NCBI GenBank assembly: GCA_964247135.1 | Contig: CAXTTL010000030.1 | Location: 1-31,144, forward strand | Length of the DNA: 31,144 nt | Direction of reading: 5' to 3' | Origin: an uncultured Deinococcales bacterium | GTDB taxonomy: Bacteria; Deinococcota; Deinococci; Deinococcales; JAAFIG01 | Shown here: in pieces, positions 63 through 31,144 of the stretch | Numbering within the stretch: position 1 is the first letter of the stretch | Layout of the letters: each line of letters starts with the position of its first letter | Notes under the pieces: model-generated | The model's input: the letters and a program-made list of their open reading frames with translations, nothing else | Told to the model about the DNA's origin: nothing | Database searches by the model: none | Program-made: the position numbers and the translations under genes

Positions 63-115
63 GTTGCTTAAAATTTTTAAGGAACTCGAGTATTCAGGGC
101 TGATCGACTCCGGAT

Positions 116-2275
116 TTAGGGGGCAATGATGATGCTTGTGCCAGAGACGGCATTCAACACACGATCCGATCCGTACTGGGTTCCCTGTACCGGATTGGTG
201 AGTGGAATGATTGCCCCTGGATTGTTGGAGCTGACCGTCAACACGCCGGTGGTTTTATTCCAAATTGCCGTTGCGCCAGCATTGTCAAAAGCCGTGCGCA
301 GTAAAAGTCGCTTGGCAATATCTGCCATTGATAAATTAACCACGGGCAAGGTCTTTAATTTGGCGTATTTGCTGGCAACATTTTTCATAAAAATGCACAG
401 CAGGCAATTTCCATTTCCGTAATTGCGCAAGTTCGATTGGTGGACAAAGTGTGGGTTGACCGAACCCGACAGAATATGTGAGATCACCACGTCCGACTCG
501 AAATCCATGATTTCTTGGAAGCTGAGGTCACGTCCCCAGTAACCACGGTAAATCGTGTTGTACTCGTCGGTGAGTTCGACGGGTGTGGTGGTGTTGTAAA
601 AAATGTTGATCGGAAAGCGTGGCTCGAGCAAGATGTCGTTGGCGGGAAGATTGCTTGGGAATCGCAAGCCTTGGTTTGGTGACGGGTTATTTTGCGAGCA
701 GTCTTCCGGGGTGGAAATGCAAATCGGTGGGGTGGTGGGCGCCGAGGTGTTGCTTGCCAAAACCCGAATCCCCAAAGCCTGAGCACCAGTGATCAAATTG
801 GCACTGGCATGGCTTTTACCGGCGTTGACCAGCGGCAAGACCTCGTCGAAATAGCCGAGTCCAGAGTGGTTGCCTGTGACCAAAACGCTGGGGTCAAACT
901 CTTTTGCCGAGAGCTTCAAGCCGCCCAAACCGGTTGCCACCGCAAGGTTTTGGGAGATTTGCGAGTTGACATCTGCCAGGCTGGTGCTGTCATCAAAAGA
1001 CAGGTGTCCAAAGGTGTGATTGATCCAGCGAAAGGCGCTGTGATAACAGTGGGTGACTGCCGAAAGCGCATCGTTGGTGCTGGTGCCAATTGGAAAGCAG
1101 TTCGCCCTCGAGTTGACCTGGTATCCTTCGCCGTTGAAAGCATGGTCGATGGTGAAGCTGTTAAACAGCGGGTTGGTGAAGCGGAAGAGTTGTTGCCAAA
1201 TGACCAAATTGATCACATCGTTGGAACGCAACCTGAAGATACCACTGTTGGCGTGGGTGCTTGGATTCCAGACATCGTTGTCCAAAAAGTAATCGTCGCT
1301 GTGGGCGGCAAAATACATTTTTTGTTCGCCCAAGAACACGCCGCGACTGACCCAGCGAACCAAACCGTATTGTAGAAGCAACGAGTGCATCAAGTATTGG
1401 TTGTGCGCGGCGGTGACTGCCAGACCTTCACGTCCATCGGGTGAGGTGTGGAGTGCGGCGACAACCGATCCGTTGGCGGTTTGCAGCAGCGGAATCGCGC
1501 TGTCGGTGACTTGGGCAAGGTAGGTGTAGGCTTGACGGATGCCAATGCTGATGTCTGGCTTGAGGTCGCTAAAAATTGCCTTACCCTGGGTGGTCAAGCT
1601 GACATTCAGTGGCGTGCTCGAGGTGTCGGCGTAGCCGGTGTAGTTTAATCCAGTGTTGGCACCGTCCGGATAGGCGTACATGGTGACTTGACGAATTTTG
1701 TAATCGCGTTCAAAGTCGCTTAAAATTTGCCATTCAACGGGGTCAAACGCCGAGAGCCAAGTGGTGCCGTCAAAATAAGCCAAATTGTTGGTGGTCAAGA
1801 TCACGCCCGAGTAATTGCCTAACCCTGGTTCAGCCTCGAGCTTATCGCTGGTTAAAATATTTTTCGATGCCACCAAAACGTCAAATGGAACGCCGATTCG
1901 GGTCAAAAAGGTTTTCATGGCGTCAAAACCGGTTTCGGTATCGGTTGCCGTAATTAACAACAGTTTGAGTTGAACCCGTGTTGCTGTGCCCGCCGGTACG
2001 CCCCGAGGGCTGATCAGACCTCTGGTTTTGGCGGCTCGAGTTGGATTGACTGGGAATGCTCGGGCAATGTTTGCGTCGTCGATGGCGGCGGTTTGGACTT
2101 GAGGTTCGGGCAGGTTGTTCAGGTCTGGCAACGGCAGACGGTTGCTCGAGGTTCCAGTTTGGATGGCTGGTTCGGTATCGGTGACGGCATCGTCGGCTGG
2201 TGTGCTTGGCGTTTGGTTGCCGCAGCCAATCACTGCGATGAGCAGTGCAATCGACAAATAACGGTAAATTTTCAT
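116..2275 (-). CDS. Lipoprotein, Agd3-like (CBM87/CE18-type) polysaccharide deacetylase
   Basis: ATG at 2275 with AAGGGGA RBS; signal peptide with VIGC lipobox; motifs HSDDYFL, WINHTFGH and HFVHQSN resemble the metal-binding and catalytic motifs of Agd3. Confidence 0.7.
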   Translation of the reverse strand: MKIYRYLSIALLIAVIGCGNQTPSTPADDAVTDTEPAIQTGTSSNRLPLPDLNNLPEPQVQTAAIDDANIARAFPVNPTRAAKTRGLISPRGVPAGTATRVQLKLLLITATDTETGFDAMKTFLTRIGVPFDVLVASKNILTSDKLEAEPGLGNYSGVILTTNNLAYFDGTTWLSAFDPVEWQILSDFERDYKIRQVTMYAYPDGANTGLNYTGYADTSSTPLNVSLTTQGKAIFSDLKPDISIGIRQAYTYLAQVTDSAIPLLQTANGSVVAALHTSPDGREGLAVTAAHNQYLMHSLLLQYGLVRWVSRGVFLGEQKMYFAAHSDDYFLDNDVWNPSTHANSGIFRLRSNDVINLVIWQQLFRFTNPLFNSFTIDHAFNGEGYQVNSRANCFPIGTSTNDALSAVTHCYHSAFRWINHTFGHLSFDDSTSLADVNSQISQNLAVATGLGGLKLSAKEFDPSVLVTGNHSGLGYFDEVLPLVNAGKSHASANLITGAQALGIRVLASNTSAPTTPPICISTPEDCSQNNPSPNQGLRFPSNLPANDILLEPRFPINIFYNTTTPVELTDEYNTIYRGYWGRDLSFQEIMDFESDVVISHILSGSVNPHFVHQSNLRNYGNGNCLLCIFMKNVASKYAKLKTLPVVNLSMADIAKRLLLRTAFDNAGATAIWNKTTGVLTVSSNNPGAIIPLTNPVQGTQYGSDRVLNAVSGTSIIIAP

Positions 2276-2613
2276 GGTTCCCCTTAATGCTTTGCTTGGA
2301 TGGACTTTAGGCAAATTGGATGGCTTCATTCTCTTCACGATTCTGACCGCTTATGTTACGAAACAGCCCATGAACTGGGCGTTAAACCCGTCCTCGCCTT
2401 GAAAAGCACAAGAATTCAGAACATTAAAGTTTCTTTATTTCGTTCAAAATGAGTAGTTTAACGTGAGCTTCATGAATTAAATTAAGTCCCAAAGATTGAT
2501 GCAATTCTCGAGCTACAGCCTCAACTGGCTCGCTTAAGATTCTCGAGGAGTACTGAAATTTTAACTATTCTCGGACTCGAGCGCCCACAAATTGCGCAAC
2601 CAAAAAACATCAA

Positions 2614-2649
2614 CGAAAAGCCCCGAACTAAAAAGTTCGGGGCTTTTCG
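2614..2649. terminator. Rho-independent terminator downstream of the DGC gene
   Basis: Perfect 16-bp stem CGAAAAGCCCCGAACT/AGTTCGGGGCTTTTCG with a 4-nt loop. Confidence 0.9.
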
Positions 2650-2665
2650 ATTTGCTCAAATAGGC

Positions 2666-4324
2666 TTACAGGACCTCTTCCAGTCGATCATTGCGCACCA
2701 GATTTTTACCGTAACGTTTGGCTTCGTACAATCGGTCATCGGCTCGAGCGATCAATCTTTCAAAATTGGCAACGCTGGTGTCCCAGACCATGCCAATGCT
2801 GACCGTGACTTTCAAACCCGCCTGAATCGCTTCCCAATCGTAATGCTCGACCGTACTGCGGATTCGCTCACAGACCAGCAAGGCATCCTGAGGAGATGAT
2901 CGCGGCAGGACAAAGGCAAATTCTTCGCCGCCGTAACGGGCTGGCATGTCCGAACTGCGCAGGACCGTGTGCAAAATTCCAGCCAAGTGCTGCAAGACCT
3001 GGTCGCCAATCAAATGCCCAAAGGAATCGTTGACAAATTTGAAATCGTCAACGTCGAGCATTGCCACCGGCAAGGGATGGTTGCCAAGGCTGGCACGGGT
3101 AAATTCCTCGGTCAGATAATTCTCGAGGTGGCGGCGGTTGTACAAACGGGTGAGTGGGTCTTGTAAAATAAGCAACTCGAGTTCAGAAGATTTTTCCTCG
3201 AGTTCGACCAGGAGTGTGGTTTTGGCTTGATTGGCTTGCTCGAGCGCCTCGAGGGCTTGCATCAGTTCGACGTTGCGCAGTTGCTCGAGTTTGGCTTCGC
3301 CGCGAAGGCGCTCTGCCTCGCGCTGGGCGTTGAAGACCCGCATTTTTCGGTTGGCGGCATCGTCACGAACCTCTTTTTCCAGACGGTGAAATTCTTCAAA
3401 AGCGCTTAATGCCTGTTCAAAATCGTTTTGTTGCTTAAACGCCTGACTTTTGATCTCAAAACCTTGAAACTCGAGCGATTTAAGATCGCTGTCTTGAGCG
3501 GCTTCGATGGCGGCGCTCGAGTAAGCAATAGCCTCGCTTGCATGGCGCTGCGCAAGTTCGATTTTTGCGGCGTTCAGCAGGCAATAGACCACACCCTCGG
3601 TTTGTTTGTTGGCGCGAACCATCTCGAGTGCGGTATCGAGGGTTGCCAGGGCTTTGGCGTGCGATCCAGAACCTGAAAGCGCCTCGGCAAGGTTGACCAG
3701 GGTTTGGGCGGTAATATCGTGCAGCTCGAGGTCGCGGGTGATGACCAGCGACGCCTCAAAATCGTTGATCGCCTCAATAAAACGTCCGAGGGCGCAACGC
3801 GCAATCCCTCGGTTGGTGAGTGCCGAGGATTTACGAACCAGATCGCCTATCGAATCACAGCGTTCAATGGCTTTGGTGGCATATTCGAGGGAGGTCTGGT
3901 TGTCACCAAGCTGGTGGTACATCCCCGAAATGTTGTTTAAACTCCAGATCATGCCAAGCACATCCTCTAACTCGGTGTTGATTCGGTAGGCGCTAAAAAC
4001 GGCATCGATGGCAGACTCGAACTCTCCTAAGGACGCGTATGCAAAACAGGTGACATTCAAGCAATCGCGCTCGAGCTTGAGGTCCCCAAAGTTACGAGCC
4101 ACCTCGAGTGCCAAATCGAGGTGATGCAGGGCTTGGGCATGATCGCCCGAGTGGAATTGACTGTAGGCGATGTTGCGCCTGGCAAGCCCCTGGGCAAAAA
4201 CATGCCCGATGGCTTTGGCTTGTTCAAGACCCTGCACGCTCTGCTCGAGGCAACGTTCACGGTTCTCGAATCGCAACATCCAAGCGCCGTGCAAAAGCTC
4301 TTCAATTTGAGATCGATTTTGCAT
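2666..4324 (-). CDS. TPR-repeat diguanylate cyclase (GGDEF)
   Basis: N-terminal TPR array, coiled coil, DPLTRLYNRR, DVDDFKFVND, I-site RSSD and active site GGEEF. Confidence 0.93.
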   Translation of the reverse strand: MQNRSQIEELLHGAWMLRFENRERCLEQSVQGLEQAKAIGHVFAQGLARRNIAYSQFHSGDHAQALHHLDLALEVARNFGDLKLERDCLNVTCFAYASLGEFESAIDAVFSAYRINTELEDVLGMIWSLNNISGMYHQLGDNQTSLEYATKAIERCDSIGDLVRKSSALTNRGIARCALGRFIEAINDFEASLVITRDLELHDITAQTLVNLAEALSGSGSHAKALATLDTALEMVRANKQTEGVVYCLLNAAKIELAQRHASEAIAYSSAAIEAAQDSDLKSLEFQGFEIKSQAFKQQNDFEQALSAFEEFHRLEKEVRDDAANRKMRVFNAQREAERLRGEAKLEQLRNVELMQALEALEQANQAKTTLLVELEEKSSELELLILQDPLTRLYNRRHLENYLTEEFTRASLGNHPLPVAMLDVDDFKFVNDSFGHLIGDQVLQHLAGILHTVLRSSDMPARYGGEEFAFVLPRSSPQDALLVCERIRSTVEHYDWEAIQAGLKVTVSIGMVWDTSVANFERLIARADDRLYEAKRYGKNLVRNDRLEEVL

Positions 4325-4489
4325 AAAACCTTTTGGGGACTTCTGTTTGAGGGGCTAAAGTTGTGAAAAACAGTCTCGAGGCAACAGGTCAGGTTGTGGG
4401 TTGACATCAGTTTACCTCTTGTTTGGGTACATGTGTTTAGTTGTCCCACAGCATGAAGAGTCATATTGACCGAGCTGAGGACAAGAATT

Positions 4490-5800
4490 TTAGAATAGAT
4501 TCAATGCAAACTGCATAAAGCGTTGAAGATTGACGCGACCACTTCCCAGGTTAATCCCGTATTGGAGGTCTTTTACAACCAAACCATCGGCGGTGTAGCC
4601 CATCGTTTTGCCCAATTCGCGTAATCCCCAGGCAGAATATGTTTTTTGTCCCAACGCCAAGGCAAACCCTCCGGCAACGATTGGCGCAGCCATGCTGGTT
4701 CCCGTCCATTTTGCCACCCTCAAGTTTGGGGCTGGAACAAAAATGTTCTCGCCTGGGGCAGTCACTTCGACGTTTCCATAGGTCGAAAACGATGATTTCT
4801 TATCGTTCAAATCGGTGCTGGCGACACCGACGGTCAAATCGCCCCAGGTGCCAAAATTTTTGGAGGCATAGGCAGGAAAGGTCACGTTGGTATTGCCCGT
4901 GTTGCCCGATGAGGACACCACAATCACACCGTTCTGGGTTGCCCAGTTGATCTCGGCGTCCAAGGATGCCAAATACTGCGAGCCGAGCGAAAGGTTGATG
5001 ACTTTTGCACCGTGGGCAACCGCCCAGTCGATGGCGGCGACCACGCTGTCAGAATTTCCAGAACCGTTTGGAGCCAGTACCCGAAGCGGCATGATTTTGG
5101 CTTTGGGTGCAACTTGAGCCACGATGCCTGCGACACATGTACCATGACCAAAACCCTTGCTCGAGCCATCAACGTAAACTTCTTGTGGCGTTGCGTCGTT
5201 GTCAACAAAATCGTACATGTCGTGCGGGGCAACCAAACGGTTGGCGAATGCAGGATGGTTAAGATCAATGCCCGTGTCGATCACGGCAACAATGATTCCA
5301 GTGCCAGCTTTTGGTGCCAGGCTCAAGGCTTCGGGCAGTTTTATTTTGGTCCAAGTGGTGGCATTTAAACTGCTGGTGACGCTCGAGACGAGATCGGTCA
5401 CCAACCCAGAGCCGTAAACCGACCAACCCGACGCCCAGGTCGTCCAACCGCTCATGTTTGAGTTGACGGCGGATGCGGCACTGGTGTCTTGTTGAGATTC
5501 CAAGGTGTTTTCGTTGGGGTCGGTGGCGTTAAACGCTTCACGGCTGAGGCGGGCAGCTCGGTCTTGGCTGAGTGCCAAAACCGCCTCGCCGGTTTCTGGG
5601 TGAAAGGTCAGGATTTTGGCATCGTATTTGCTTGCCAAGTTTTCGGCGGTATCCCCTGCTTGAATATTGACCGTCATGAGCCTGCTTGTGCCGGTGACAA
5701 TCGCTGGCAACTGGGCGCAACCCACCAAAATTGAGGGTACGCCAATTAGGGCTACACTGAGGACTCGAGATAGAAACGACTTTCCTATGGATTGACTCAT
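4490..5800 (-). CDS. S8 (subtilisin-family) serine protease lipoprotein
   Basis: LVGC lipobox; catalytic motifs VIDTG, HGT and GTSMA; oxyanion-hole SSGN. Confidence 0.93.
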   Translation of the reverse strand: MSQSIGKSFLSRVLSVALIGVPSILVGCAQLPAIVTGTSRLMTVNIQAGDTAENLASKYDAKILTFHPETGEAVLALSQDRAARLSREAFNATDPNENTLESQQDTSAASAVNSNMSGWTTWASGWSVYGSGLVTDLVSSVTSSLNATTWTKIKLPEALSLAPKAGTGIIVAVIDTGIDLNHPAFANRLVAPHDMYDFVDNDATPQEVYVDGSSKGFGHGTCVAGIVAQVAPKAKIMPLRVLAPNGSGNSDSVVAAIDWAVAHGAKVINLSLGSQYLASLDAEINWATQNGVIVVSSSGNTGNTNVTFPAYASKNFGTWGDLTVGVASTDLNDKKSSFSTYGNVEVTAPGENIFVPAPNLRVAKWTGTSMAAPIVAGGFALALGQKTYSAWGLRELGKTMGYTADGLVVKDLQYGINLGSGRVNLQRFMQFALNLF

Positions 5801-5885
5801 GGTACACCTGCTTTCTTCCGTAACGTCGGTTTATGAGAAGCTGAAATTGAGATTGTCATTCAAAAAACAATCCGTATTGCCTGCC

Positions 5886-5918
5886 ATTGTGCAACAGCCT
5901 GCCTCACCAATTCCTTAC
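5886..5918 (-). promoter_or_regulatory. Putative S8 promoter with an 11-bp-spaced direct repeat
   Basis: Minus strand GTAAG-N6-GTGAG, then 11 nt, then a -10-like CACAAT. Confidence 0.4.
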
Positions 5919-6144
5919 AACAATCTGATGTGTGCAGCAACTTCGCTACAACCAATTTAAGTAAGACTTACGAATTGCGTTCCTTTATTTTTAAGCGAAA
6001 TTGGGCAGGGTTTTGAAGACCAAAACGCCAAAAACAGAACTTTTCATGAGAAGCCAAACAGTACTTTCCCTCGAGATGCGCTGGGGTAAAATGAACTCCG
6101 TTTTAAGCCTTGAAAGAACTCGGTTTTAAACCTTGGAGGACATT

Positions 6145-7320
6145 GTGAAAGCCGTCATTGTTTCAGCCACCCGCACGCCAATTGGCAAGTTCCTTGGAAG
6201 CCTCAAAGACCTGAGCGCCCCGCAACTCGGGGCGATAGCCGCCCGAGAGGCGGTGCGGCGAGCTGGGCTGGATTCCAGCTTGATCCAAGACACGATTATG
6301 GGGCAGGTCGTCACGGCGGGCGCGGGGCAAAACCCCGCCCGTCAAGCCTCGGTCAATGCGGGAATGGAAGTCTCGAGCGGCGCGGTGACGGTTAACATGG
6401 TTTGCGGTTCGGGTTTGAAAGCCATCATGATGGCTGCCCAGGGCATCAAAGCTGGCGACATTCAGGCGGCGCTGGCAGGCGGCATGGAGAGCATGTCGAG
6501 CAGCCCGTACTTGCTGCCCGATGCCAGAATGGGCTTGAAGGCGGGTCACAAACAAATTTTGGACGCCAACAACGTCGACGGTTTGTGGTGCGCCTTCGAG
6601 CATTGGGGCATGGGTGACGCCGCCGAAATGATCGCGGTTGAACAAAAAATTTCACGGCTCGAGCAAGACGAATTTGCCTTGCGTTCGCATCAGAAAGCCA
6701 TTCAGGCAATCGATGCAGGGCGTTTCAAGTCCGAAATTGTGCCAGTTTCGCTCGAGACCAAAAAAGGCAAGGTGCTGATCGACCAGGACGAAGCGCCACG
6801 CAGGGATTCCAACCTCGAGGCGCTCGGCAAGCTCAAACCTGCGTTCTCCAAAAATGGCACGGTCACCGCCGGCAACGCCCCAGGTTTGAACGATGCGGCG
6901 GCGGCGCTGGTGGTGGTCAGCGAAGATTTTGCCAAAGCCCACGGTTTAAAACCGCTGGCGGAGATTTTGGGTTATGCCACCACCGGACTCGAGCCAAAAT
7001 GGTTTGCCATGACGCCCGCGCCAGCCACGCGAAAGTTGCTCGAGCAACTGAACATGCAGCTTTCAGACATTGATTTGTTTGAACTCAACGAAGCCTTTGC
7101 CGTGCAAAGCCTGGCGGTGATCCGTGATCTGGGCATTGACGAGGGCAAGGTCAATGTCAACGGTGGCGCGGTGGCACTCGGGCATCCGATTGGTTGCTCG
7201 GGCGCAAGAATTGTCGTGACCTTATTACACGCGCTCGAGCAGCAAAATCTTGAAGTTGGTCTGGCGAGTTTGTGCATGGGTGGTGCAAACGGTTTGGCGC
7301 TGGCGGTGCGCCGAGTTTAG
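6145..7320 (+). CDS. Acetyl-CoA C-acetyltransferase (thiolase)
   Basis: GTG start after GGAGG; motifs NMVCGSG, NEAF, GHPIG and CMGG; TAAAAT -10 candidate at 6087-6092. Confidence 0.95.
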
Positions 7321-7614
7321 TCGCGCTTGTTTCATTTGAGAAATGATTCTGGTCTTGGATGTTCTCGGAAATATTCTCGAGAAGCCATTTTTATGTCGCA
7401 ACACAAACAGTTTTTGCACCAAGATTTCATGAATTCTCGTGTATCGTTGGATGATGCCCAAAATTCTTGTCGCCATGTAAAGCATCGACGGTCACCAAAA
7501 TCTTTAGCGTTCAAAACCAAATAGTCAACTGTAAGCAAATTGAAAGTTTTTAAAAAGTATTCTTTTAATCGGTAAAAACACGGCTTTCATCAGATAAAGG
7601 AAACCTTTCAACAC

Positions 7615-8406
7615 ATGGATCAACCGATGAGCAACGCGCACGATCTGCAAGGAGATTTCACCAAATCGAGCCTGCCCAGTTTATTGCAGTACTTGGGCAT
7701 GATTGGCGCGACGGGCGAACTGGTGCTGACCATCCCACCAAACGACAAAGCCGTCCTCAGCCTCGAGAAGGGCAAATTGATCGACGCCATTTACCGCGAA
7801 CACACCGGACAACTGGCGCTTTTTCAGGTCATGCAAACCCAAAACGGTTACTTTGCATTCAAAGCCGGAATTTACGATGTCAAAGCCTCGATTGACAGTT
7901 CGCTCGAGCGTCTGTTGATGGGCGCCGCCGCTTTTGAACACGCCCGCACCCAATTTCAACCAGGTGATGTGCCCTCCATTTTGCCCAGTTCGACCTCTGG
8001 GAACATCAATTTGCAAGCCGCCCAGCTTCGGGTGGTCGCCATGATTGACTCTCAGCGCAGCATCAGCCAACTCGCCAGCGCGGTGCGCGGCAGTATCGGC
8101 GACGTCACCGCCTTGATTTCACAATTGGTCGAATCCGGTTTGGTGGCGGTCAAAACCAACACCGTGGAAAGCGTCAACCCACAATTTTTTGAAGACCTGC
8201 GCCCGCGACTCTCGAGCCTGGTCGGACCGATGGCGCACATCATGATGGTCGATGCCGCCGAGCGGCTCGGTTTTGGCTTGGAAAACCTCGACAAAAAATT
8301 GGTTCGCGCCTTCTTGACCGAACTTCACAAAGAAGTCCCCAGCAATCAAATGAAGCAATTTGTGGTGCTGGTCGAACCGTTGTTGCGCCAATACGAAAAT
8401 CAGTAA
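7615..8406 (+). CDS. DUF4388 (PATAN-like) domain protein with a wHTH-like and a C-terminal helical domain
   Basis: LQGDF..SLPSLLQYL..TGELVL..G.LIDA pattern; IDSQRSISQLA..ISQLVESGLV wHTH-like segment; LVGPMA-type C-terminal helix bundle. Confidence 0.75.
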   Translation: MDQPMSNAHDLQGDFTKSSLPSLLQYLGMIGATGELVLTIPPNDKAVLSLEKGKLIDAIYREHTGQLALFQVMQTQNGYFAFKAGIYDVKASIDSSLERLLMGAAAFEHARTQFQPGDVPSILPSSTSGNINLQAAQLRVVAMIDSQRSISQLASAVRGSIGDVTALISQLVESGLVAVKTNTVESVNPQFFEDLRPRLSSLVGPMAHIMMVDAAERLGFGLENLDKKLVRAFLTELHKEVPSNQMKQFVVLVEPLLRQYENQ

Positions 8407-8463
8407 ACAGGCGCTGAAAGATCAAACCCGAGCATCAAAAAATGAATCGCAAAAAGGAGTTTT

Positions 8464-9669: not shown

Positions 9670-9670
9670 C

Positions 9671-10705: not shown

Positions 10706-10738
10706 AACCCAAACCGACGTTGCTGGCTCGAGACGCGG

Positions 10739-22352: not shown

Positions 22353-22367
22353 TCGATTCAACATACC

Positions 22368-22396
22368 AAAGGCTCGAGCGCAAATCTCGAGCCTTT
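22368..22396. terminator. Bidirectional terminator built from two CTCGAG sites
   Basis: AAAGGCTCGAG-cgcaaat-CTCGAGCCTTT between convergent genes. Confidence 0.8.
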
Positions 22397-22888: not shown

Positions 22889-23458
22889 TTAAGACCCGAT
22901 CACTTTCTCGAGAAACAACTGGTGCAACCTCGAGTCGTTGGTCAATTCCGGGTGAAAACTGCTCGCCATGATCCGGTCTTTTCGCGCCACGACAATGCAA
23001 TCCTCAAAGCTCGAGAGGACCTCCACACCCTCGCCAACCGATTCGATCACCGGAGCACGAATAAAAACCGTGTGAAACGGCGCGTCCAAACCTTTGACCA
23101 AAAGCGGCACTTCAAACGAATCGACTTGCCGCCCAAACGCATTGCGCCGAATTCGCATCTCGAGCAGACCAAGGCGCGGTTGAGAGGATTGCACAATATC
23201 CGTGGCGAGCAAAATTGCGCCCGCGCACGTTCCCCAAATTGCCCCGCCTCGAGCCGCAAATTCTTTTAACGCCGTGTCCAGCCCGTAAGCCACCATCAGC
23301 TTGCCAATCGTGGTGCTCTCCCCTCCTGGAAAAATCACACCAGCCAAACCCTCCAAGTGCTTTGGGAGCCGCACCTCCTGCACCGAACACCCCAGACGCT
23401 CGAGCATCAATTTGTGCTCACGGAAATCACCTTGCAATGCCAGAACGCCTACATTCAT
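22889..23458 (-). CDS. pdxT: Pyridoxal 5'-phosphate synthase glutaminase subunit
   Basis: GVLALQGDF, PGGESTT, GTCAG, FIRAP and FHPELT. Confidence 0.97.
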   Translation of the reverse strand: MNVGVLALQGDFREHKLMLERLGCSVQEVRLPKHLEGLAGVIFPGGESTTIGKLMVAYGLDTALKEFAARGGAIWGTCAGAILLATDIVQSSQPRLGLLEMRIRRNAFGRQVDSFEVPLLVKGLDAPFHTVFIRAPVIESVGEGVEVLSSFEDCIVVARKDRIMASSFHPELTNDSRLHQLFLEKVIGS

Positions 23459-23511
23459 GCACACCTCGAGAATCACAAAATGACAACGAATACACCTTGC
23501 CTCACCTGAAG

Positions 23512-23691
23512 CCCTCACCCGACTTCTTGCCCCTTACAGCAGCACCTGACGGGCTTGGGGCGCTCGCTTAGGCTCGTCACCCTCTCCCTCTCCCGCAAGC
23601 GGGAGAGGGTTCAAAACGCATTATTTTCGTTTCTCAAGTTGGGAATAAAACTCCCTTCTCCTGATGTTGGGAGAAGGGTTGGGGATGAGGG
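23512..23691. repeat. Inverted pair of REP-like CCCTCACCC/CCCTCTCCC..GGGAGAGGG palindromic units
   Basis: Hairpins at 23586-23609 and 23653-23678; termini CCCTCACCC and GGGGATGAGGG are near-complementary. Confidence 0.75.
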
Positions 23692-23735
23692 TAGAAAAAC
23701 GATCATTCCAAATGAGCAAGGGCTAATTGCTGTCC

Positions 23736-24641
23736 TTACCAGCCGCGAACAGCCATTTTTTGATCTGGAGTTAACGCGACAACTTGAATCCCAACCATTG
23801 CTTCGCCCAGGTTTCTCGAGACTTCCGCCAAAATTTCTGGGTCTTTGTAATGCGTGACGGCTTTGACAATCGCTTGGGCGCGTTTGACCGGGTCGCCTGA
23901 TTTGAAGATGCCCGAACCGACGAACACGCCGTCCAAGCCAAGGTGCATCATCAGGGCGGCATCGGCTGGGGTTGCCACGCCACCGGCGGCAAAGTTAGGC
24001 ACTGGAAGCTTGCCATTTGCCCAGACGTACCGCACCAACTCAAATGGCGCCTGTAAATCCCTTGCCATCGTCATCAGTTCGTCCTCGGGCAAGCCTTGGA
24101 CTTTACGGATTTCGCCCATGATCTGCCTGGCGTGGGTCACGGCTTCGACCACATCGCCCGTGCCAGGTTCGCCTTTGGTGCGAATCATGGCAGCGCCCTC
24201 ACCGATGCGGCGCAAGGCTTCACCGAGGTTTCTCGAGCCGCAAACGAACGGCACTTTGAAATCGTGTTTGTTGACGTGGTACTGGTTGTCGGCTGGGGTC
24301 AAGACTTCGGATTCGTCGATGAAATCCACGCCCAAAGATTGCAAGATTTGCGCCTCGACAAAATGCCCGATGCGGCACTTTGCCATGACCGGAATGCTGA
24401 CCGCGTTGACGATGCCGACCACCATGTCGGGGTCGCTCATGCGGGCGACGCCACCGTCGCGGCGAATGTCGGCTGGGACGCGCTCGAGCGCCATGACTGC
24501 GGTTGCGCCCGCGTCTTCGGCGATGATGGCTTGTTCGGGCGTGACGACGTCCATGATCACGCCGCCTTTGAACATTTCGGCAAAGCCCGTTTTGACACGC
24601 AACGTGCCCGTTTCGGTGTGATTTACTTTGGATTCCAACAT
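23736..24641 (-). CDS. pdxS: Pyridoxal 5'-phosphate synthase lyase subunit
   Basis: GGAGG RBS before ATG 24641; [26 protein letters not shown] and FVGSGIFKS. Confidence 0.98.
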
Positions 24642-24767
24642 ATTCGTACCTCCGAAACGTGATATTAGCACTTTGAAAAAGGGATTATTGTTGCTCCAGT
24701 GTGATTCTCGAGACTCGAGTAACACTGAGATGAAGCCGTGCTGAAAATCCGTTGATGGTTGTGGATA

Positions 24768-24950
24768 TCAACGCAACCCGACCGTTCTGGCACGAACTGG
24801 CACAATGCGCTCGAGGTAACGGGCAAGTTCGAGGGCACTTTCAAACTCGCGTTTTTCGTGATTGTCGGATCGCTCGAGACTTGCAGACCAAATACGTGGC
24901 GGGTTGGAAATGTAGACGATGACCTCGAGGTGGACGGTGCGTTGATTCAC
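24768..24950 (-). CDS. Small hypothetical protein (60 aa)
   Basis: AAGGAGG RBS 5 nt before GTG; WSASLE..REFESALELARYL pattern. Confidence 0.7.
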   Translation of the reverse strand: MNQRTVHLEVIVYISNPPRIWSASLERSDNHEKREFESALELARYLERIVPVRARTVGLR

Positions 24951-24984
24951 GGCTTCCTCCTTTGGAAAGCTAAACAAAAGTTGC

Positions 24985-25024
24985 GAAACAAGAAACTCGA
25001 GATGCAACAATCTGCACCTCGAGT
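24985..25024 (-). terminator. Terminator-like hairpin built from two CTCGAG sites
   Basis: Minus strand ACTCGAGGTGCA-gattgt-TGCATCTCGAGT followed by TTCTTGTTT. Confidence 0.6.
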
Positions 25025-25041
25025 CTTTTATTGAAGCGGTG

Positions 25042-28000
25042 TTAACCTGGAGGACAGACGATGCTGATCTCGCTCGAGGGGCTGACGCTCGTGCCTGCGT
25101 TGTCGGTCACGGTCAGGTCAAGTCTGACCCGCTGGTTGGCAAGGGTTTGGCACAGCACCACAGGTTCGCTGAACAGAAAGTTGTACGTCGCCGTAACAGA
25201 AAGCGCCCAAGGGACGGTTGCCGTGCTGCCAAGTCCAAGCGGTGTTCCTTGAACCGCTCCAGCGTCAGAAAGCTTGGTGGCTTTCCACAGGTACGTGTAC
25301 GGCGCAACGCCGCCCGAAACACTCGAGCTGAGGCTGAGGGTGTCCGCCCCACCGCTGCTGGTAAACGTGTACACGGGTTTGGGTCTGGCGGGTGCAACGG
25401 TAATGCTGGCGCTCAAAGCCGAGATGCTCGAGCAATAGCCTTTGGGAACCGTGATGTTGAGCGGGAAGAAACTGTTGTTGGTGAAATCTGATTCGTCAAT
25501 GGTGTGCGCGTCGTTGATCGTGACCTTAAACTGATGCGAACCCTCCATTGCGCCAGGGTCGGCGGCATAGTAGGGAATGTTGAAGGTGATGGTTGGCTCG
25601 GTTGGGGTCGGTGGTGGCTCGAGCGCGGGCACATCGGCGGTTCCGACCCAGTCGGTGTGGAGCGAATCGTAAGCCTTTAAGCTGCCTGCGGCGGCGGGGC
25701 TGGCAACATTGCCAAAGTTACGGACTTCGGCTTGGACGATCAGCACGGGTTGGTCTTTTTGGCAAACTTGCCCCAAGCTGACGGTTGCCGATTTGATGAA
25801 CAGATCGGGTTTTTGCACGACCGACGGCTTCTTGATGATGATGCCCGAGCAAACCGCATTGTTGGCTTCATCCGATTCGACCACCTTGGCAAACGGGTCA
25901 ACTCGAGTGCAGAGGTAGTAACTTCCCTCTGGCGTGTCGCTGGGAATGATGCCGCCCGCCGGCAGGGTCACACTTGCGCCAAGTGCGAGGTCTGGCGTGG
26001 CTGAGACTCTCGAGATCAGCATGTCTTCCATGTAAGTGGCGCTGGCGCTGGCTGCCCCCGTCGGAACGCTGGTGTCGCTCGAGAGGATCAAATCAATCAT
26101 GTAACCCTGGCTTGGGTTCAGTGTGCCGCTCGTGCCAGGTGCGGGGGCAAGACCAGCGTTTTCGACTCTGACGCTCGAGCTTGCGCCAAGGTCAGTGCCT
26201 GGGGTGACGCCCGTTGGGCTGATCGGGTTGGCTTCGAGGTCGGGTTTAATCAGCTCGAGTCTGGCTGTCGGGGCGGGCGTTCTGGCTGCCGCCTGAGCGA
26301 AGCTTTCGTCGTTGGTCAGCGCCACATCGGTGATGCAACCCTCGAGCGTGAACGGGTTGGTCACTCCAGCCGCGTCGCAAATGCCTCGAGCGCGGGCGCG
26401 ATCAGCCTCAGAGAGGCTCGGGGTGTTGTTGGGGAAAGCAGCCAGATCAAAGCCCCCGAACGATTCGCCGGTCAGGTAGACGAACAAGGATTCGGACAGG
26501 TTGGGAATACGCCAGGAATTGTTGTATTCGCCGTAAAACTGGGCGAACGGTGCTGGTTGTGGCAGCACAGCGCCCGCTCGGGTTTGAATCTCGTCGGTGA
26601 GGTTGGCATTGAAGTTGCCCGCCAGACCCTTGAGTGCGCCGCGCCTCGTTTCGGTCGGATAGACACTCACATTGAGATAACCGTAGTCCACAACAACGAT
26701 CTTCTCGCCGTGAGCGAAATCAAAAGTGTAGCTGTTCGCCGATTTGGAGATTCTGTTGCCCGCACCAAGCTCGAGTCCGGCGGCAGGGATCGCCGTCGGT
26801 GTGCCCAAAACACCGAGGCGCAAGGTGGTTGTTCCCTCGGCGTACAGACCGACCGTCTGACCATTCATGCGGGTTGCAAATGCCGTGGTGATGCTGACGG
26901 TGTGTGATGTTCCGTAGGGTTTCATGCGAAGCTGGACCCGAAAGTCGTCGCTGGTGGACTGCACATAATCGTACTCGCCCGCACCCTGAAAATCAAAATA
27001 CAGACCATCGAGCGAGACAAAGTGCGGGTCGCCCCAATCCGTCGTGCTCGGACCGGTCGGCGTGAGGGGATTGGTGATGACATCGCGTCCAGCCTCGTCG
27101 CCATTTCGGATTGCCATTCTCGAGCCTGTCTCGAATGCCCCAGCAAAAGTTTCTGTGCCGTCGTTGTACGCATAAACGCGCACCTTGAGCGTCCGACCTG
27201 CGGGCAGGCTGGCGGCGGGAATCGTGAAATTCCGTGCGGTGTTTGGCAGGTCGCTCGAGGTGAACGCATTTGTACCGTTGCCCAAGTCATCAACACGCAC
27301 CACAAAACGGTCTGGGTTGACTGAGCTTGTCCAGGTCACAGCAAGCGGACTCGAGACGTTGACGCTGGCATTCGCGGCGGGTGCGGTCATGGCTGGCGCC
27401 TCGGGCACCCAGTCGTAGGCGGCAAGGCTGCACTCGCCAGATTGGACGCGCAAGAACAAGCCGTTGCCGACTGCGACGGCGGAGGTAAGCTCGTCTTGGT
27501 AGAGGTTTGTTGGTTTGATGCCGATGGCTTCGCCATTGACGGTGACGCTTGCCGTGAGCAAATCCACACCCGCCTTTGAGACTCGAATATTCTGAAATTT
27601 CGCGCCCATGTCTGTGCCACGCATCAGCATTCGGTCACACACCAACGGCGTGACTGGCGATTCTTCGGACGGTGTGCCCTCCTTGCCATCGGTGCTGATT
27701 GCCAAGACTTTGAACTTGAACTTTTGGGCATTGGTTAAGCCCGAGTCCCTGAACGAAAAGTGCCTGATCTTAAATTTGGGTCTGGCACTTCGCGGCTCGA
27801 GGGTTGGCGCTCTTTGACCCGAAGTGATCGGCGCGGCGTTGACCTTCAAGCCATCGCGGTAGACGTTGTAGCCAGCAATATTGGGGTCGTCCTCACCCTG
27901 CCAGAAGACCACGGCGGCATGGTCTTCTGGCACAACGGTCACGTCGGTAGGTGCGCTCAAGCTCGAGCCGTCAGGTGGCGTGACCGGGCAGGCGGTGAGC

Positions 28001-28206
28001 AGCATCATGCCGAACAAGGTTGCCAACAGTCCCCGTCGAATCACGGCTTTGGATCGGCGTGGCGGCTCTGGCGGTGAACTCGAGTAGGCATATTTGAGTT
28101 TCTGGTGTTGCTGTGCCTCAAAGTGAAGGCTCGAGAGATGGCTGCGTCCAGGGTTGACCATGTTTTGTATCCCCTGGTGTTCGATGCGATCTTGATTGTT
28201 CCTCAT
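25042..28206 (-). CDS. Large surface lipoprotein with Fn3, VWD (GDPH) and two CARDB-like domains
   Basis: AAGGAG RBS; LTAC lipobox; Fn3 AGYNVYRDG; VWD WGDPHFVSLDGLYFDFQGAGEY..GLAGNFN; KPDL..ESDE.NN CARDB-like repeats. Confidence 0.82.
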   Translation of the reverse strand: MRNNQDRIEHQGIQNMVNPGRSHLSSLHFEAQQHQKLKYAYSSSPPEPPRRSKAVIRRGLLATLFGMMLLTACPVTPPDGSSLSAPTDVTVVPEDHAAVVFWQGEDDPNIAGYNVYRDGLKVNAAPITSGQRAPTLEPRSARPKFKIRHFSFRDSGLTNAQKFKFKVLAISTDGKEGTPSEESPVTPLVCDRMLMRGTDMGAKFQNIRVSKAGVDLLTASVTVNGEAIGIKPTNLYQDELTSAVAVGNGLFLRVQSGECSLAAYDWVPEAPAMTAPAANASVNVSSPLAVTWTSSVNPDRFVVRVDDLGNGTNAFTSSDLPNTARNFTIPAASLPAGRTLKVRVYAYNDGTETFAGAFETGSRMAIRNGDEAGRDVITNPLTPTGPSTTDWGDPHFVSLDGLYFDFQGAGEYDYVQSTSDDFRVQLRMKPYGTSHTVSITTAFATRMNGQTVGLYAEGTTTLRLGVLGTPTAIPAAGLELGAGNRISKSANSYTFDFAHGEKIVVVDYGYLNVSVYPTETRRGALKGLAGNFNANLTDEIQTRAGAVLPQPAPFAQFYGEYNNSWRIPNLSESLFVYLTGESFGGFDLAAFPNNTPSLSEADRARARGICDAAGVTNPFTLEGCITDVALTNDESFAQAAARTPAPTARLELIKPDLEANPISPTGVTPGTDLGASSSVRVENAGLAPAPGTSGTLNPSQGYMIDLILSSDTSVPTGAASASATYMEDMLISRVSATPDLALGASVTLPAGGIIPSDTPEGSYYLCTRVDPFAKVVESDEANNAVCSGIIIKKPSVVQKPDLFIKSATVSLGQVCQKDQPVLIVQAEVRNFGNVASPAAAGSLKAYDSLHTDWVGTADVPALEPPPTPTEPTITFNIPYYAADPGAMEGSHQFKVTINDAHTIDESDFTNNSFFPLNITVPKGYCSSISALSASITVAPARPKPVYTFTSSGGADTLSLSSSVSGGVAPYTYLWKATKLSDAGAVQGTPLGLGSTATVPWALSVTATYNFLFSEPVVLCQTLANQRVRLDLTVTDNAGTSVSPSSEISIVCPPG

Positions 28207-28242
28207 GGCGTTCTCCTTCTCGACCCTGCTGGTCGTGAACAG

Positions 28243-28310
28243 AAGGTAGTCCGAGCTGCGACACAAGGGCGACACAAGAACGCTCGGGTTTTAATCTCGA
28301 GCGTTACAAG
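28243..28310 (-). promoter_or_regulatory. SARP/AfsR-type direct-repeat operator and -10 box
   Basis: CTTGTGTCGC twice at 11-bp periodicity (28258-28278), 9 nt upstream of TACCTT; a third 8/10 copy CTTGTAACGC at 28301-28310. Confidence 0.65.
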
Positions 28311-28328
28311 CTGTCCAGGACTGAATTT

Positions 28329-31144
28329 TTACTGATTCAAAACACCGAGCAGAATCTGATTGATGGGCATCTCGAGGAAGGCAAGCCGCAATGCTGGGTC
28401 GCGCAGTTGCTCGAGGTGGTTTCGGGCTTCGGTTCGGGCGGTCTCGAGAATACTTTCGGCTTCGAGCTTGCGCCCATTGGCTTCGAGCGCTTGGGCATGA
28501 ACCAGGCGCACCGTTTCGGGCAGCGCTTCCCGGATTCCGCTGCCCGACTCGAGCAAGGTCATGGCTTGGCTGGTGTCCTCGAGTGCAGGGATGGCTCGAT
28601 TCAATTTGAGCTGCGTACTGGCTCGAGCACTCAAGGTCAAAATCCGATCCGTCATCGAACTGGTGCTGGCGGCAGTCTCGAGCGCCCGGTTGGCGGCTTC
28701 GAGCGCGGCAGAAAAATCACCAAACTCATTCAGCAATTGCACCAAATGGCATAGGCAGTGCGAGACCAAACGGTGGTTGCCGGTGCGCGTCCCAAGGGCG
28801 ATGGCAGCCTCGAGTTCGGCTTTGGCTTCATCAAACCGTCCAAGACCGCGAAGCGCACCGACTCGGGTGTCCCGAACAAAACCCTCGAGTTGACGCAGAC
28901 CATCGCGGGTGGCAATCTGGAGCGCCGCGTCTGAATTTTCGAGCGCCTTTTGAAAACTGCCGTACAAATTGAGCATGGTGGCGCGGTTGTTGTGCAGCCT
29001 GGCTTTCAAGATTGGGCTGGCGGCGAACTGCCACGCCTCGAGTGCGGCGGCGTTTTGCTCGAGCGCGGTTTGAGGTTGCCCGAGGGTGGCGTAGAGAATG
29101 GATTGCCAATTGAGGGACAGCGCGAGTTGGCGTGAATCGAATTGTTGTGCCAACGCGACGGCTTGGCTGGCTCGCTCGAGCGCCTTAGAAAAATCTTCAA
29201 CGTAATAGCTGGCTTCGGCAAGTCGAACCATTGCCTGAACGTGCTCAGAGCCGCCCAGTGGCTCGAGCAGGGCATACGCGCGTTCGGCTGCCTCGAGCGC
29301 TTTCTGCGGCTGCCCAGTCAACGACCAGAGGTTTGAGCGGCGCAGGAGCACCGTACCGAGTTGTTCGGAAGTGCTGGCACGATTCTCAAGCGCGTCAAGG
29401 TCTGTCTCTTGGATTTGCCGCTCGCCAAGTTCACGCGCCAGACGTTCATGCTCGAGCAACCATTCAAATCGCTCAAAAGCATCGGTTTTGGCAAGCTCGA
29501 GCGCCCGCGTGAAGTAAGCGAGGGCTTGGGGCAAGTTAAACAGCGTTGAGGCTGCCAGCGCGGCTTTAGCCCAGTGTGGCGCGGCTTCGGGATGCCGACC
29601 TGCCTGCTCGAGGTGAATGGCAATTGGGGCGCTCGGTCCGCCGCTTGTTTCGAGTTCCCGGGCGAGCCGACGGTGAATCAAACGGCGTCGCTCCAAGCCA
29701 AGTTCCTCGGCTTGGGTGCGGCGAATCAGATCGTGGCTAAATTGATAACCGCCCGCAGTCTCGCGCAACAAGCCCGCCAAAATCGCTTGCTCGAGTGCCT
29801 CGATTGCCTCCCATTCGGCGAGGGCGCTGACCCCCGCGACGGTGCTCAATTGAAACGGTTCGGAAGCCAGGCTGCCAACCTCCAACAAACGCCGCGTCGC
29901 CGAACCCAAACGGTTCGATCTTGCCAGAATGGCTTCGCGCACGGTGGCTGGAATCGGCAATTCGCGGTAATCCTCGGTGGACTCGTCGTAAGGCGTGGTC
30001 CAGATGCCGTCCGAATTGATGAACAACTCACCAGACTCGAACAGGGTTCGCAGCGTCTCGAGCACAAAAAACGGATTTCCGCCAGTCGAGGCATAGAGCC
30101 GACGTGGGAACAAGACCAGCGCATCACCGCAAAGTTGTTCCATCAATTCGCTGATTCCAGCCTCATCGAGCGGTTCGAGTTCGATCAACTCGATCACATC
30201 AGCTTTCATCAAGGCTCGAAGTTGCGCCTCGAGGGCGGGGGTCAGACCGTCAAACCGCACGGTGGCGATTGTCGGTCTGGCAATACCGCGCTCGAGCAAT
30301 CTGGCGGCGGCAAAATTGCCCATCTCGAGGCTGGAGGCATCAAAATACTGAAGGTCGTCGCTGACCAGCAGGTCAAATCTGGTGTACACCGCCATCAGGT
30401 ATTCGCCAAACGCATCAAACAAGCGCAAACGATCACCCTCGGACTGCATGGCGGGCATGGTTTCATCACTCAATTCAGGCACCAACCTCGAGAGTTCGCG
30501 CCGCACCCAGGCGGGCAATTCCAAATCAGGTTCGAGGGTGAGGACCTGACGAATCGCCCGTGAAAGCGTCGAAAATGGCACGTTGGCATCGTGCGGCTGA
30601 CCGCGATTGAGGTGATACCGACCCTTAAAAGCCGCGAACTCTCGTAGCAGCCGACTCTTTCCAATACCCGCCTCGCCCGCCAACAGCACGGGTTTGCCTT
30701 CACGGCAAGCTTGCTCGAGTTTTTGCCAGGTTGCGGCACGTCCGATCAAAGGCGATTCAAGACCAGGTGTCTGCACCACACCAGGTTGTTCCGTCAAAAT
30801 CTGAACTCCTCGAGCGCGGGCGCGTTCGGCGACCGCCACCGTTTCTGGCAGCGGCTCGAGCGCAAATTCACGGCGCAAAACCGTCTGGCAGCGCTCGAAT
30901 TGCCTCAGTGCCGCCTCGCGCTGACCGAGCAAAATCTGCAAACGCATCGTCTCGCGGTGATGGCGTTCTTGCAGTTCATCCTCCGCCAGCAGCCTCAAAT
31001 ACGCCTCGAGCGCCGCTCGGGCATCGCCAGCCGCTTCACGCGCCCGCGCGGCATTCTCGAGCGCCTTGGCGTGTTCTGACGCCATTGCCTCACGCGCCAG
31101 CGGCAACCACCCGTCAAAACCTGGTGCGCCGCGCAACTCCAAGC
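28329..31144 (-). CDS. BTAD-AAA(STAND)-TPR transcriptional regulator, 5' end outside the window
   Basis: BTAD DELQERHHRETMRL..LEPLPET; Walker A GEAGIGKS; Walker B LLVSDDLQ; GGNPFF; FSHDLIR; C-terminal TPR array. Confidence 0.9.
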   Translation of the reverse strand, partial: LELRGAPGFDGWLPLAREAMASEHAKALENAARAREAAGDARAALEAYLRLLAEDELQERHHRETMRLQILLGQREAALRQFERCQTVLRREFALEPLPETVAVAERARARGVQILTEQPGVVQTPGLESPLIGRAATWQKLEQACREGKPVLLAGEAGIGKSRLLREFAAFKGRYHLNRGQPHDANVPFSTLSRAIRQVLTLEPDLELPAWVRRELSRLVPELSDETMPAMQSEGDRLRLFDAFGEYLMAVYTRFDLLVSDDLQYFDASSLEMGNFAAARLLERGIARPTIATVRFDGLTPALEAQLRALMKADVIELIELEPLDEAGISELMEQLCGDALVLFPRRLYASTGGNPFFVLETLRTLFESGELFINSDGIWTTPYDESTEDYRELPIPATVREAILARSNRLGSATRRLLEVGSLASEPFQLSTVAGVSALAEWEAIEALEQAILAGLLRETAGGYQFSHDLIRRTQAEELGLERRRLIHRRLARELETSGGPSAPIAIHLEQAGRHPEAAPHWAKAALAASTLFNLPQALAYFTRALELAKTDAFERFEWLLEHERLARELGERQIQETDLDALENRASTSEQLGTVLLRRSNLWSLTGQPQKALEAAERAYALLEPLGGSEHVQAMVRLAEASYYVEDFSKALERASQAVALAQQFDSRQLALSLNWQSILYATLGQPQTALEQNAAALEAWQFAASPILKARLHNNRATMLNLYGSFQKALENSDAALQIATRDGLRQLEGFVRDTRVGALRGLGRFDEAKAELEAAIALGTRTGNHRLVSHCLCHLVQLLNEFGDFSAALEAANRALETAASTSSMTDRILTLSARASTQLKLNRAIPALEDTSQAMTLLESGSGIREALPETVRLVHAQALEANGRKLEAESILETARTEARNHLEQLRDPALRLAFLEMPINQILLGVLNQ

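Follow-up and report, generated by a model that had tools for sequence, protein, structure and literature searches.

In cyanobacteria, highly iterated palindromes (HIPs) co-occur with cognate methyltransferases, and hexameric alternates to HIP1 (GCGATCGC) exist (PMC4390886, available excerpt). The over-representation of HIPs is given as 15- to 300-fold (excerpt of PMC5861425), and HIP1 has been proposed to be an uptake sequence (excerpt of PMC13756078). According to the accessible portion of a preprint (10.1101/2024.09.10.611283), methylated HIP1 raises transformation, and RAATTY of Campylobacter jejuni is a methylated palindromic hexamer with one copy per roughly 60 bp. What HIPs do and how they arose has been an open question for three decades, and work on them has been confined to one phylum. 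Here we describe the palindrome CTCGAG in a 31,144-nt stretch of DNA from an uncultured Deinococcales bacterium (the window: contig CAXTTL010000030.1 of assembly GCA_964247135.1, or contig C30 of genome G000) and in its relatives. We conclude with high confidence that CTCGAG is a real, lineage-wide HIP under a DNA-level bias that acts on each site autonomously, and that it represents an independent second case. The bias is strong (odds of about 64-fold), old and variable among lineages; codon usage, longer repeats and artefact are excluded as its source. Among the matches listed from open-licence papers and preprints, no earlier description of CTCGAG enrichment in Deinococcota was found, and a wider search on over-represented palindromes brought up just an 18-nt repeat of Caldithrix that resembles repetitive extragenic palindromic (REP) elements.

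Abundance of CTCGAG in the window and its genome

An earlier note on the window had put CTCGAG at about 210 copies against about 8 expected, an enrichment of about 25-fold. Exact search returned 211 sites (6.77 per kb), compared with Markov expectations of 8.8 (zero-order) and 6.7 (first-order), and 100 dinucleotide-preserving shuffles of the window contained on average 6.74 (standard deviation 2.42, maximum 15). Models of order 3 and 4 expect 60 and 171 copies because their sub-words are themselves built from CTCGAG. The word ranks first among all hexamers of the window, followed by TCGAGC (100); GAGCTC is absent and GGCC occurs twice. The sites form a dispersed array without strand over 85..31061. 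The first lies at 85-90, as the earlier note had it, and the last at 31056-31061, beyond the end at 31031 that was given there. That the word is used in all three codon frames and in intergenic DNA was borne out as well. The 21 long open reading frames (ORFs) of the window (116..31142), 20 of them with Pfam annotation, contain 186 sites, of which 115 are read as CTC-GAG (Leu-Glu), 21 as nCT-CGA-Gnn (x-Arg-x) and 50 as nnC-TCG-AGn (x-Ser-Ser/Arg). Another 26 sites lie entirely outside these ORFs, within 3,477 bases. As an example of non-coding enrichment, the 316-base intergenic region 24726..25041, between a PdxS-like gene (23736-24725, minus strand) and a CARDB/VWD gene (25042-28275, minus strand), holds five sites (24810, 24873, 24924, 24996 and 25018).

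The same density was found throughout the genome, a 5.09-Mb metagenome-assembled genome (MAG) of 386 contigs with a GC content of 52.7%, 84% completeness and 1.8% contamination, in which no 16S rRNA is present. It contains 33,925 CTCGAG sites (6.66 per kb, about one per 150 bases), 24.7 times the zero-order expectation. No other hexamer is as frequent, and the runner-up among the palindromic ones stands at just 3.7-fold. The excess is not limited to one contig, as all 297 contigs longer than 5 kb carry the word at 2.56 to 10.53 sites per kb (median 6.77), a uniformity that binning by k-mer composition may have built in or exaggerated. The nine classes of single-nucleotide variants, counted together with their reverse complements, occur at 0.08 to 1.74 times expectation, and of the 54,610 TCGA tetramers, 33,925 lie inside CTCGAG and the remainder is near expectation. 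Therefore, the full hexamer appears to be what is recognized. The preferred octamer is GCTCGAGC (4,225 copies, 44-fold).

To separate the word from codon and amino-acid usage, we used 4,211 ORFs that do not overlap and encode 120 aa or more, which serve as a proxy for genes and are not the output of a gene caller. About 82% of the sites (27,923 of 33,925) fall within these ORFs, at 6.52 per kb compared with 7.39 per kb in the rest of the genome. The non-ORF DNA has a GC content of 48.6% and an expectation of 0.23 per kb, which corresponds to a 32-fold excess. Ten within-gene shuffles of synonymous codons yielded 3,954 ± 75 sites against 27,880 observed (7.05-fold), even though this null leaves the encoded proteins unchanged, along with a codon usage that is itself already inflated; the excess thus does not vanish under a codon-aware model, whereas its disappearance there would, according to the earlier note, have refuted the idea. 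Leu-Glu dipeptides are written as CTCGAG in 17,038 of 22,207 cases (76.7%). Elsewhere, CTC accounts for 15% of the codons for Leu and GAG for 32.6% of those for Glu, so that a share of about 4.9% is expected and the odds ratio is, by our arithmetic, about 64. Tripeptides of the other two frames that could be written with the word by synonymous choice contain it in 43% and 46% of cases, compared with 2.2% and 3.5% expected. Glu-Leu, in contrast, is never written as GAGCTC (0 of 9,441).

The bias extends to the proteins. Relative to composition, Leu-Glu is used 2.38-fold in this genome, Glu-Leu 1.01-fold and Ser-Ser 1.63-fold. The Leu-Glu excess parallels motif density, being 1.85 to 2.68 in six samples from the family, 1.49 to 1.55 in moderately enriched groups and 1.04 to 1.17 in four groups without specific enrichment (Deinococcus-like, 1.04; Thermus-like, 1.17; and two genera of family f2). 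We are highly confident of a real, site-autonomous DNA-level bias, and such a force overrides synonymous choice and shifts proteins toward Leu-Glu: it fixes three quarters of the Leu-Glu codon pairs and doubles the dipeptide across the proteome.

Distances between neighboring sites follow a nearly geometric distribution (mean 148, median 108, coefficient of variation 0.96), with no periodicity other than that of the codon (3 nt), which fits independent sites better than a requirement for one site per interval. Spacings below about 18 bases are depleted two- to threefold, and a spacing of 6 is never seen because GAGCTC would result. Long gaps exceed the Poisson expectation (202 against about 152 above 800 bases, and 16 against about 1.4 above 1,500 bases). 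Density is flat along genes, with no promoter or terminator preference of note, and amounts to 7.3, 8.2 and 8.7 per kb in divergent, tandem and convergent intergenic regions, respectively. Around the 5,347 sites wholly outside ORFs, where each base has a background of about 0.25, the flanks are weak and symmetric and end at ±4, with G-4 0.32, A-3 0.42, A-2 0.33 and G-1 0.35 upstream and C+1 0.36, T+2 0.34, T+3 0.42 and C+4 0.30 downstream, or roughly GAAG-CTCGAG-CTTC. This symmetry, together with the exclusion at short range, suggests a reader that binds as a dimer and covers about 14 bp. A longer and mostly intergenic unit of the REP or miniature inverted-repeat transposable element type does not match a word that lies largely in ORFs and has no context beyond ±4.

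The word occurs even in predicted tRNA genes, with 10 sites in 8 of 66 genes (examples at C14:11589-11664 and C157:3282-3357) compared with 34 expected at genome density. Several of these sites lie at the T-stem/acceptor junction; the CCA end is gene-encoded, and one prediction, a 'tRNA-Arg' of 95 nt that contains two sites, is perhaps spurious.

Density falls to 1.5 sites per kb or less over 4 kb or more in just three stretches, which contain an ABC transporter, a conjugation cluster and a STAND NTPase. The conjugation-type cluster (G000:C75:14000-19420, 1.5 sites per kb), with a TraC/VirB4-like ATPase and a TrbC/VirB2 pilin, is probably an integrative or plasmid element. The longest site-free gap, of 2,644 bases (G000:C13:11892-14536), is a 2.6-kb island of 30.5% GC with two ORFs (393 and 360 aa) without Pfam match; it adjoins the gene for a RecJ of the Deinococci type and was probably acquired recently. 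A beta-class methyltransferase gene (G000:C189:4856-5632) has no site in 777 bases, compared with about 5 expected, and likewise looks recently acquired. The nature of these regions fits an accumulation of sites with residence time, and motif density separates resident from recently acquired DNA in these genomes.

Conservation and distribution in the Deinococcota

The earlier note had proposed site conservation in orthologs and the distribution across the phylum as checks. Same-genus relatives (blastn, about 83% nucleotide identity) retain 70-85% of the CTCGAG sites of the window, compared with 37-43% of other hexamers. In other genera of the family (66-70% identity), 33-67% are retained against 10-18%, in alignments centred on a citramalate/isopropylmalate-synthase-like gene (10751..12364, plus strand), our marker for finding relatives. 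In a synonymous control between the window and two same-genus relatives, restricted to conserved dipeptides, Leu-Glu written as CTCGAG was letter-identical in 113 of 132 cases (86%). The controls reached 43-49%, with 20 of 47 for other Leu-Glu pairs, 123 of 278 for Leu followed by another two-fold residue, and 25 of 51 for Arg or Ser followed by Glu. Site loss at synonymous positions is thus about fourfold below that of the controls. Moreover, 8 of the 27 changed 'other' Leu-Glu pairs read CTCGAG in the relative. Where sites were lost, single differences were mainly transitions (TTCGAG class 29, CCCGAG 13, CTTGAG 9), which gives no methylcytosine-specific signal. Sites aligned with non-site sequence in relatives were substituted in 155 cases and gapped in 5; this base-for-base alignment indicates that the word spread by substitution and not as a mobile or longer repeat.

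Relatives found with the marker protein are MAGs named 'Deinococcales bacterium', at 96%, 73-75% and 59% identity. With no 16S rRNA in the MAG, its placement is based on these names, and they bear out the earlier note's mention of Deinococcota. CTCGAG was enriched 13.7- to 37.4-fold in 15 of 15 such loci from 13 other public records, none of which contains GAGCTC and among which is a 5.09-Mb single-contig chromosome (OZ252252.1), while 17 unrelated loci showed 0 to 2.0-fold. All 18 same-family genomes among 30 relatives are enriched; they represent five genera with a sample GC of 46-62% and carry 838 to 4,448 copies of GCTCGAGC each, compared with 0 to 165 of the reversed control.

Counts in another 160 genomes from across the phylum revealed a gradient. 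Genus g7 (79 genomes) has 26 to 1,010 CTCGAG sites per genome, which amounts to depletion, and genus g9 (28 genomes) has 1,455 to 2,803, which roughly matches the count of the reversed word. The numbers rise in genera g13, g14 and g15 to 3,336 to 12,522 (about 1,400 to 3,400 per Mb), with GAGCTC far scarcer, and families f2 and f4 are intermediate. Expressed with group labels that are inferred, partly from plasmid-record patterns, the word is enriched about 5- to 10-fold in Meiothermus-like genomes (resembling Meiothermus, Allomeiothermus and Calidithermus), shows no specific enrichment in Thermus-like genomes and is depleted in Deinococcus-like ones; the distribution is therefore family-wide and graded from depletion to about 25-fold. 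The plasmid records gave 599 CTCGAG and 99 GAGCTC for Allomeiothermus silvanus pMESIL01, 343 and 183 for Oceanithermus profundus pOCEPR01, 257 and 238 for Thermus thermophilus pTT27, and 15 and 26 for Deinococcus radiodurans MP1. Among sequencing runs, just three freshwater metagenomes contain 5-10% of the sampled words.

Among the matches listed, the viral contigs L123, L125 and L131 (IMG/VR) have 3-5 CTCGAG per kb and hardly any GAGCTC; in one case, 14.7 kb contain 49 copies of the former and 2 of the latter. Such high-GC contigs, from a sample that the search pattern itself selects, may come from phages whose hosts are CTCGAG-rich. None of the 80 viral loci with clustered sites that were listed, which were pattern-selected and mostly of high GC, has the signature of the family, a GC content of about 50% together with a near-absence of GGCC.

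In the window, a close pair of sites, 24707-24712 and 24714-24719 (24707..24719), is only 7 bases apart, and such pairs are rare genome-wide. One site (6070..6075) lies in the divergent intergenic region between an S8 peptidase gene (4490-5800, minus strand) and a thiolase gene (6133-7320, plus strand). A row of efflux-type genes at 15691-21638 encodes two outer-membrane OEP proteins, an HlyD-type adaptor and a MacB-like permease and includes a probable ATPase ORF without annotation (19482-20309); a divergent two-component pair (12896-14892) is located upstream of this row.

Possible origins of the bias

The data describe a DNA-level force that would act on each potential site, push the sequence to the exact hexamer and retain it there. 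The site would be read by a CTCGAG-specific dimeric factor, restriction-enzyme-like or methyltransferase-like, native to Deinococcales and differing in strength between lineages. We tentatively favor the reading that CTCGAG is a self-DNA tag read at uptake or recombination. Tagged DNA would be taken up or recombined preferentially among relatives, and the sites would spread by molecular drive. The earlier note had likewise offered uptake and recombination, besides nucleoid organization, as possible roles. ComEC and DprA are present, and uptake sequences, RAATTY and HIP1 provide precedents.

A number of points weigh against this self-tag. ComEC and DprA, being widespread, are of little help in judging it. 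Thermus and Deinococcus are the model naturally transformable genera of the phylum, and yet Thermus-matching groups are at parity with the reversed control and Deinococcus-matching groups are depleted. A 6-base tag discriminates poorly compared with the known uptake sequences of 9-12 bases. Convergent intergenic regions show no concentration of sites (8.7 against 7.3-8.2 per kb), unlike paired uptake sequences that resemble terminators. Uptake sequences vary as dialects, whereas the same hexamer is kept here over a very deep phylogenetic range. The low-density islands that would mark foreign DNA are few, and binning may have taken out others. Finally, the pattern-selected viral loci, lacking the family signature, say nothing about phages of the lineage, and that scan has no bearing on the tag.

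A methylation-coupled repair ratchet, as in Elhai's model for HIP1, would work by a methyltransferase that marks the parental strand and repair that follows the mark, so that sites accumulate; we consider it a doubtful explanation here. The roughly fourfold lower synonymous site loss is what a ratchet predicts, and the accompaniment of cyanobacterial HIPs by cognate methyltransferases agrees with it. Methylated CTCGAG and TCGA are also reported in a preprint to be common to the hot-spring genomes and phages of one network group, whose taxon the excerpt does not name (10.64898/2026.06.24.734251, available excerpt). The genome of the window has at least 11 methyltransferase-like genes, namely two MmeI-like genes, one for a 1,500-aa protein, four of the beta class, two for 5-methylcytosine enzymes, one HsdM-like and one Dam-like; the scan of this genome covered six Pfam families, and 10 candidates were annotated against NCBIfam and Pfam. 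However, no methyltransferase common to the family was found with five protein queries, scans for PF02384 and PF07669 and two XhoI-linked probes in family genomes that are 57-94% complete, the enzymes of contigs C178, C169, C112, C21, C192 and C189 not being among the queries. Orthologues of the five queried enzymes are sporadic: the C36 enzyme is found in 2 of 18 family relatives and one genome outside the family, that of C14 in 3 of 18, that of C207 in 4 of 18 plus a fragment, that of C320 in 6 of 18, and that of C4 in 1 of 5 family genomes. The PF02384 and PF07669 scans, run over the 30 relatives, revealed a large and variable repertoire with no obvious common member. Genome G015 (82% complete) had no match in any methyltransferase scan, and the single-contig genome G011 has none of the small enzymes except the Dam-like one, which is itself missing from most of the family.

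CTCGAG-type enzymes do occur in the order, as the ratchet would need. XhoI-family endonucleases (PF04555) were found in 4 of 61 genomes and in none of 19 family genomes. They are intact in three genomes of f4 (loci include G021:C1:73699-77256 and one in G084), where they are convergent with a 340-aa beta-class methyltransferase. One f2 genome (G104:C1:1094188-1097598) has an endonuclease gene disrupted by stop codons and a shift of frame, next to a PaeR7I-like gamma-class Eco57I/TaqI_C methyltransferase. Orthologues of the beta-class type (63-73% identity) are present in f4, in four Thermus-like genomes, which lack enrichment, and in a single genome of f2. The gamma-class type shares 64-67% identity with Pseudomonas and E. 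coli enzymes, one of them named 'modification methylase PaeR7I' at its source, and stands alone between amidase and Na/Ca-exchanger genes, with conserved synteny, in two Meiothermus-like genomes. It occurs in just 8 of the 160 genomes and is missing from 13 of 17 g13 and 4 of 4 g14 genomes, which are equally enriched. Neither type has an orthologue in the 19 family genomes, and the gamma-class type has no homologue in the genome of the window at E <= 1e-3. This patchiness suggests that CTCGAG-specific enzymes circulate in the order and that neither explains the enrichment. The link to methylation through an orphan methyltransferase, which the earlier note had put forward, thus found no support: none of the five tested enzymes is family-wide, and the XhoI-linked types do not track the enrichment.

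Two further candidates turned out to be unrelated variable cassettes: a 500-aa gamma-class methyltransferase carried by two family genomes, and an enzyme of the TaqI_C type from a third. The former (G009:C11:20000-27000 and G014:C92:58500-65500) combines the methyltransferase with a protein of 307 or 338 aa without Pfam match, at 41% and 48% identity between the two genomes, respectively; the two genes probably form a restriction-modification system in which the endonuclease is of an undescribed type. Sampled loci of the Thermus-like genomes G022 and G026 are depleted in TCGA (20 and 35 per 20 kb), and both genomes carry PF07669 genes of 415-423 aa, the size of M.TaqI, which fits TaqI-type restriction in the genus. 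TCGA is over-represented in the f4 samples. Several palindromes are nearly or fully absent from the genome of the window (GAGCTC 0, GGGCCC 1, CGGCCG 3, AGGCCT 4, CGTACG 5, GGATCC 7, CCGCGG 11 and CAGCTG 15 copies), along with GGCC (380, 0.016-fold) and CTAG (0.07-fold). GAGCTC is absent from 21 of 23 sampled family loci and occurs once in each of the other two, and avoidance of GGCC depends on the genus. Such avoidance in the genome and the family suggests heavy, changing restriction pressure.

An array of weakly selected binding sites, serving an abundant nucleoid-associated, chromosome-organizing or DNA-protecting protein or forming a Chi-like protective 'self' signal for an endogenous nuclease, is an unlikely origin. 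The symmetric non-coding consensus of about 14 bp and the deficit of spacings below about 18 bases resemble the footprint of a dimeric binder, and the uniform density along genes and intergenic classes, with no longer site-free stretch than the C13 island, is in line with such an array. On the other hand, spacing is random and aperiodic, 43-77% of the reachable sites are occupied, far beyond what coverage would need, and long gaps are more frequent than Poisson. No candidate protein was found, and Chi-like signals are strand-oriented, which a palindrome cannot be.

Even less probable is a very-short-patch-type repair independent of methylation that converts near-cognate heteroduplexes to CTCGAG, comparable to Vsr acting on CCWGG in E. 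coli. Short-patch repair would act independently at each site, in coding and non-coding DNA and in any long-resident DNA, which fits the data. No Vsr (PF03852) was found in the genome of the window (84% complete), however, and the transition neighbors that such repair should consume are not depleted (CTTGAG 1.17-fold, TTCGAG 1.74-fold, CCCGAG 1.43-fold) and are also the commonest states of lost sites.

We regard the possibility that the excess simply follows from base composition or from the usage of codons or amino acids as practically negligible: in high-GC Thermus-like genomes CTCGAG reaches 2.5 to 4 times the zero-order expectation but about equals GAGCTC, so that codon usage alone gives a small effect, against the sevenfold excess over synonymous shuffles, the 32-fold excess in non-ORF DNA and a Glu-Leu that avoids GAGCTC entirely. 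An assembly or synthetic artefact, which the earlier note had also considered, or one of binning or adaptors is hardly conceivable, since the sites stand in frame inside conserved genes, recur at orthologous positions in other records and are present in the 15 loci and 18 family genomes, even if binning by composition could make a single bin seem uniform.

Returning to the tag or a related drive, it is conceivable, although we hold this with reserve, that CTCGAG is the densest HIP yet seen and is kept without a dedicated methyltransferase, by a methylation-independent drive or a self-tag that reshapes the proteome and is also present, in graded form, in Meiothermus-like bacteria. The gradient from depletion to 25-fold across related genera permits comparative tests such as gene co-variation, of the kind already carried out for HIP1 (PMC13756078), and some moderately enriched relatives are apparently cultured organisms, open to assays of uptake, binding and repair. 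In practice, XhoI-type enzymes will shred such DNA if it is unmodified.

Comparison with known systems

XhoI and PaeR7I recognize CTCGAG, and their systems thus share the word. Their genes are present in three relatives, with a decayed copy in a fourth, and absent from the family, where neither the cognate endonuclease (0 of 19 genomes) nor an orthologue of its partner methyltransferases was found. In addition, active restriction sites are normally avoided, whereas CTCGAG is enriched 25-fold. In E. coli, Dcm and Vsr raise CCWGG by very-short-patch repair. This is likewise a repair bias that raises a short palindrome genome-wide, but its effect is far smaller, and neither a PF03852 protein nor depleted transition neighbors were seen here.

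DNA uptake sequences (DUS) of Neisseria and uptake signal sequences (USS) of Pasteurellaceae have 9-12 bases, are non-palindromic and often stand as inverted pairs behind genes. Like them and like RAATTY, CTCGAG is a short word dispersed genome-wide that lies within genes in several frames; drive is the presumed mode of spread of the others and would be that of CTCGAG under the self-tag reading. It differs from DUS and USS in being a 6-base palindrome without a marked preference for convergent regions, and from RAATTY, which depends on an orphan methyltransferase, in that no family-wide one was found in the scans described above.

The closest resemblance is to HIP1 and the alternate HIPs, such as GGCGCC of a Calothrix strain, which are short, GC-rich, hyper-abundant palindromes as well. 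The comparison with HIP1 in the earlier note held in most respects: CTCGAG exceeds composition and ranks first for its length, occupies coding and non-coding DNA, belongs to no larger repeat, is conserved between species beyond background, and is lineage-wide with exceptions among relatives. Of five features tested for a HIP as Robinson, Elhai and Xu use the term, three are clearly shared, and one, a quasi-periodic spacing described for HIP1 (Xu 2018, according to the available part of PMC13756078), is lacking in CTCGAG. HIPs also co-occur with a cognate methyltransferase, and a family-wide one was not found for CTCGAG in the scans described above. CTCGAG further differs in its phylum, its sequence and its length of 6 instead of 8 bases, and it is denser, with 6,660 sites per Mb compared with 300-2,700 per Mb (PMC4390886, available excerpt). 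Judged by these sequence features, CTCGAG is a HIP1-like element in a new phylum and a second case of HIPs, outside the cyanobacteria, with a dimeric, CTCGAG-specific reader as the candidate factor behind it.

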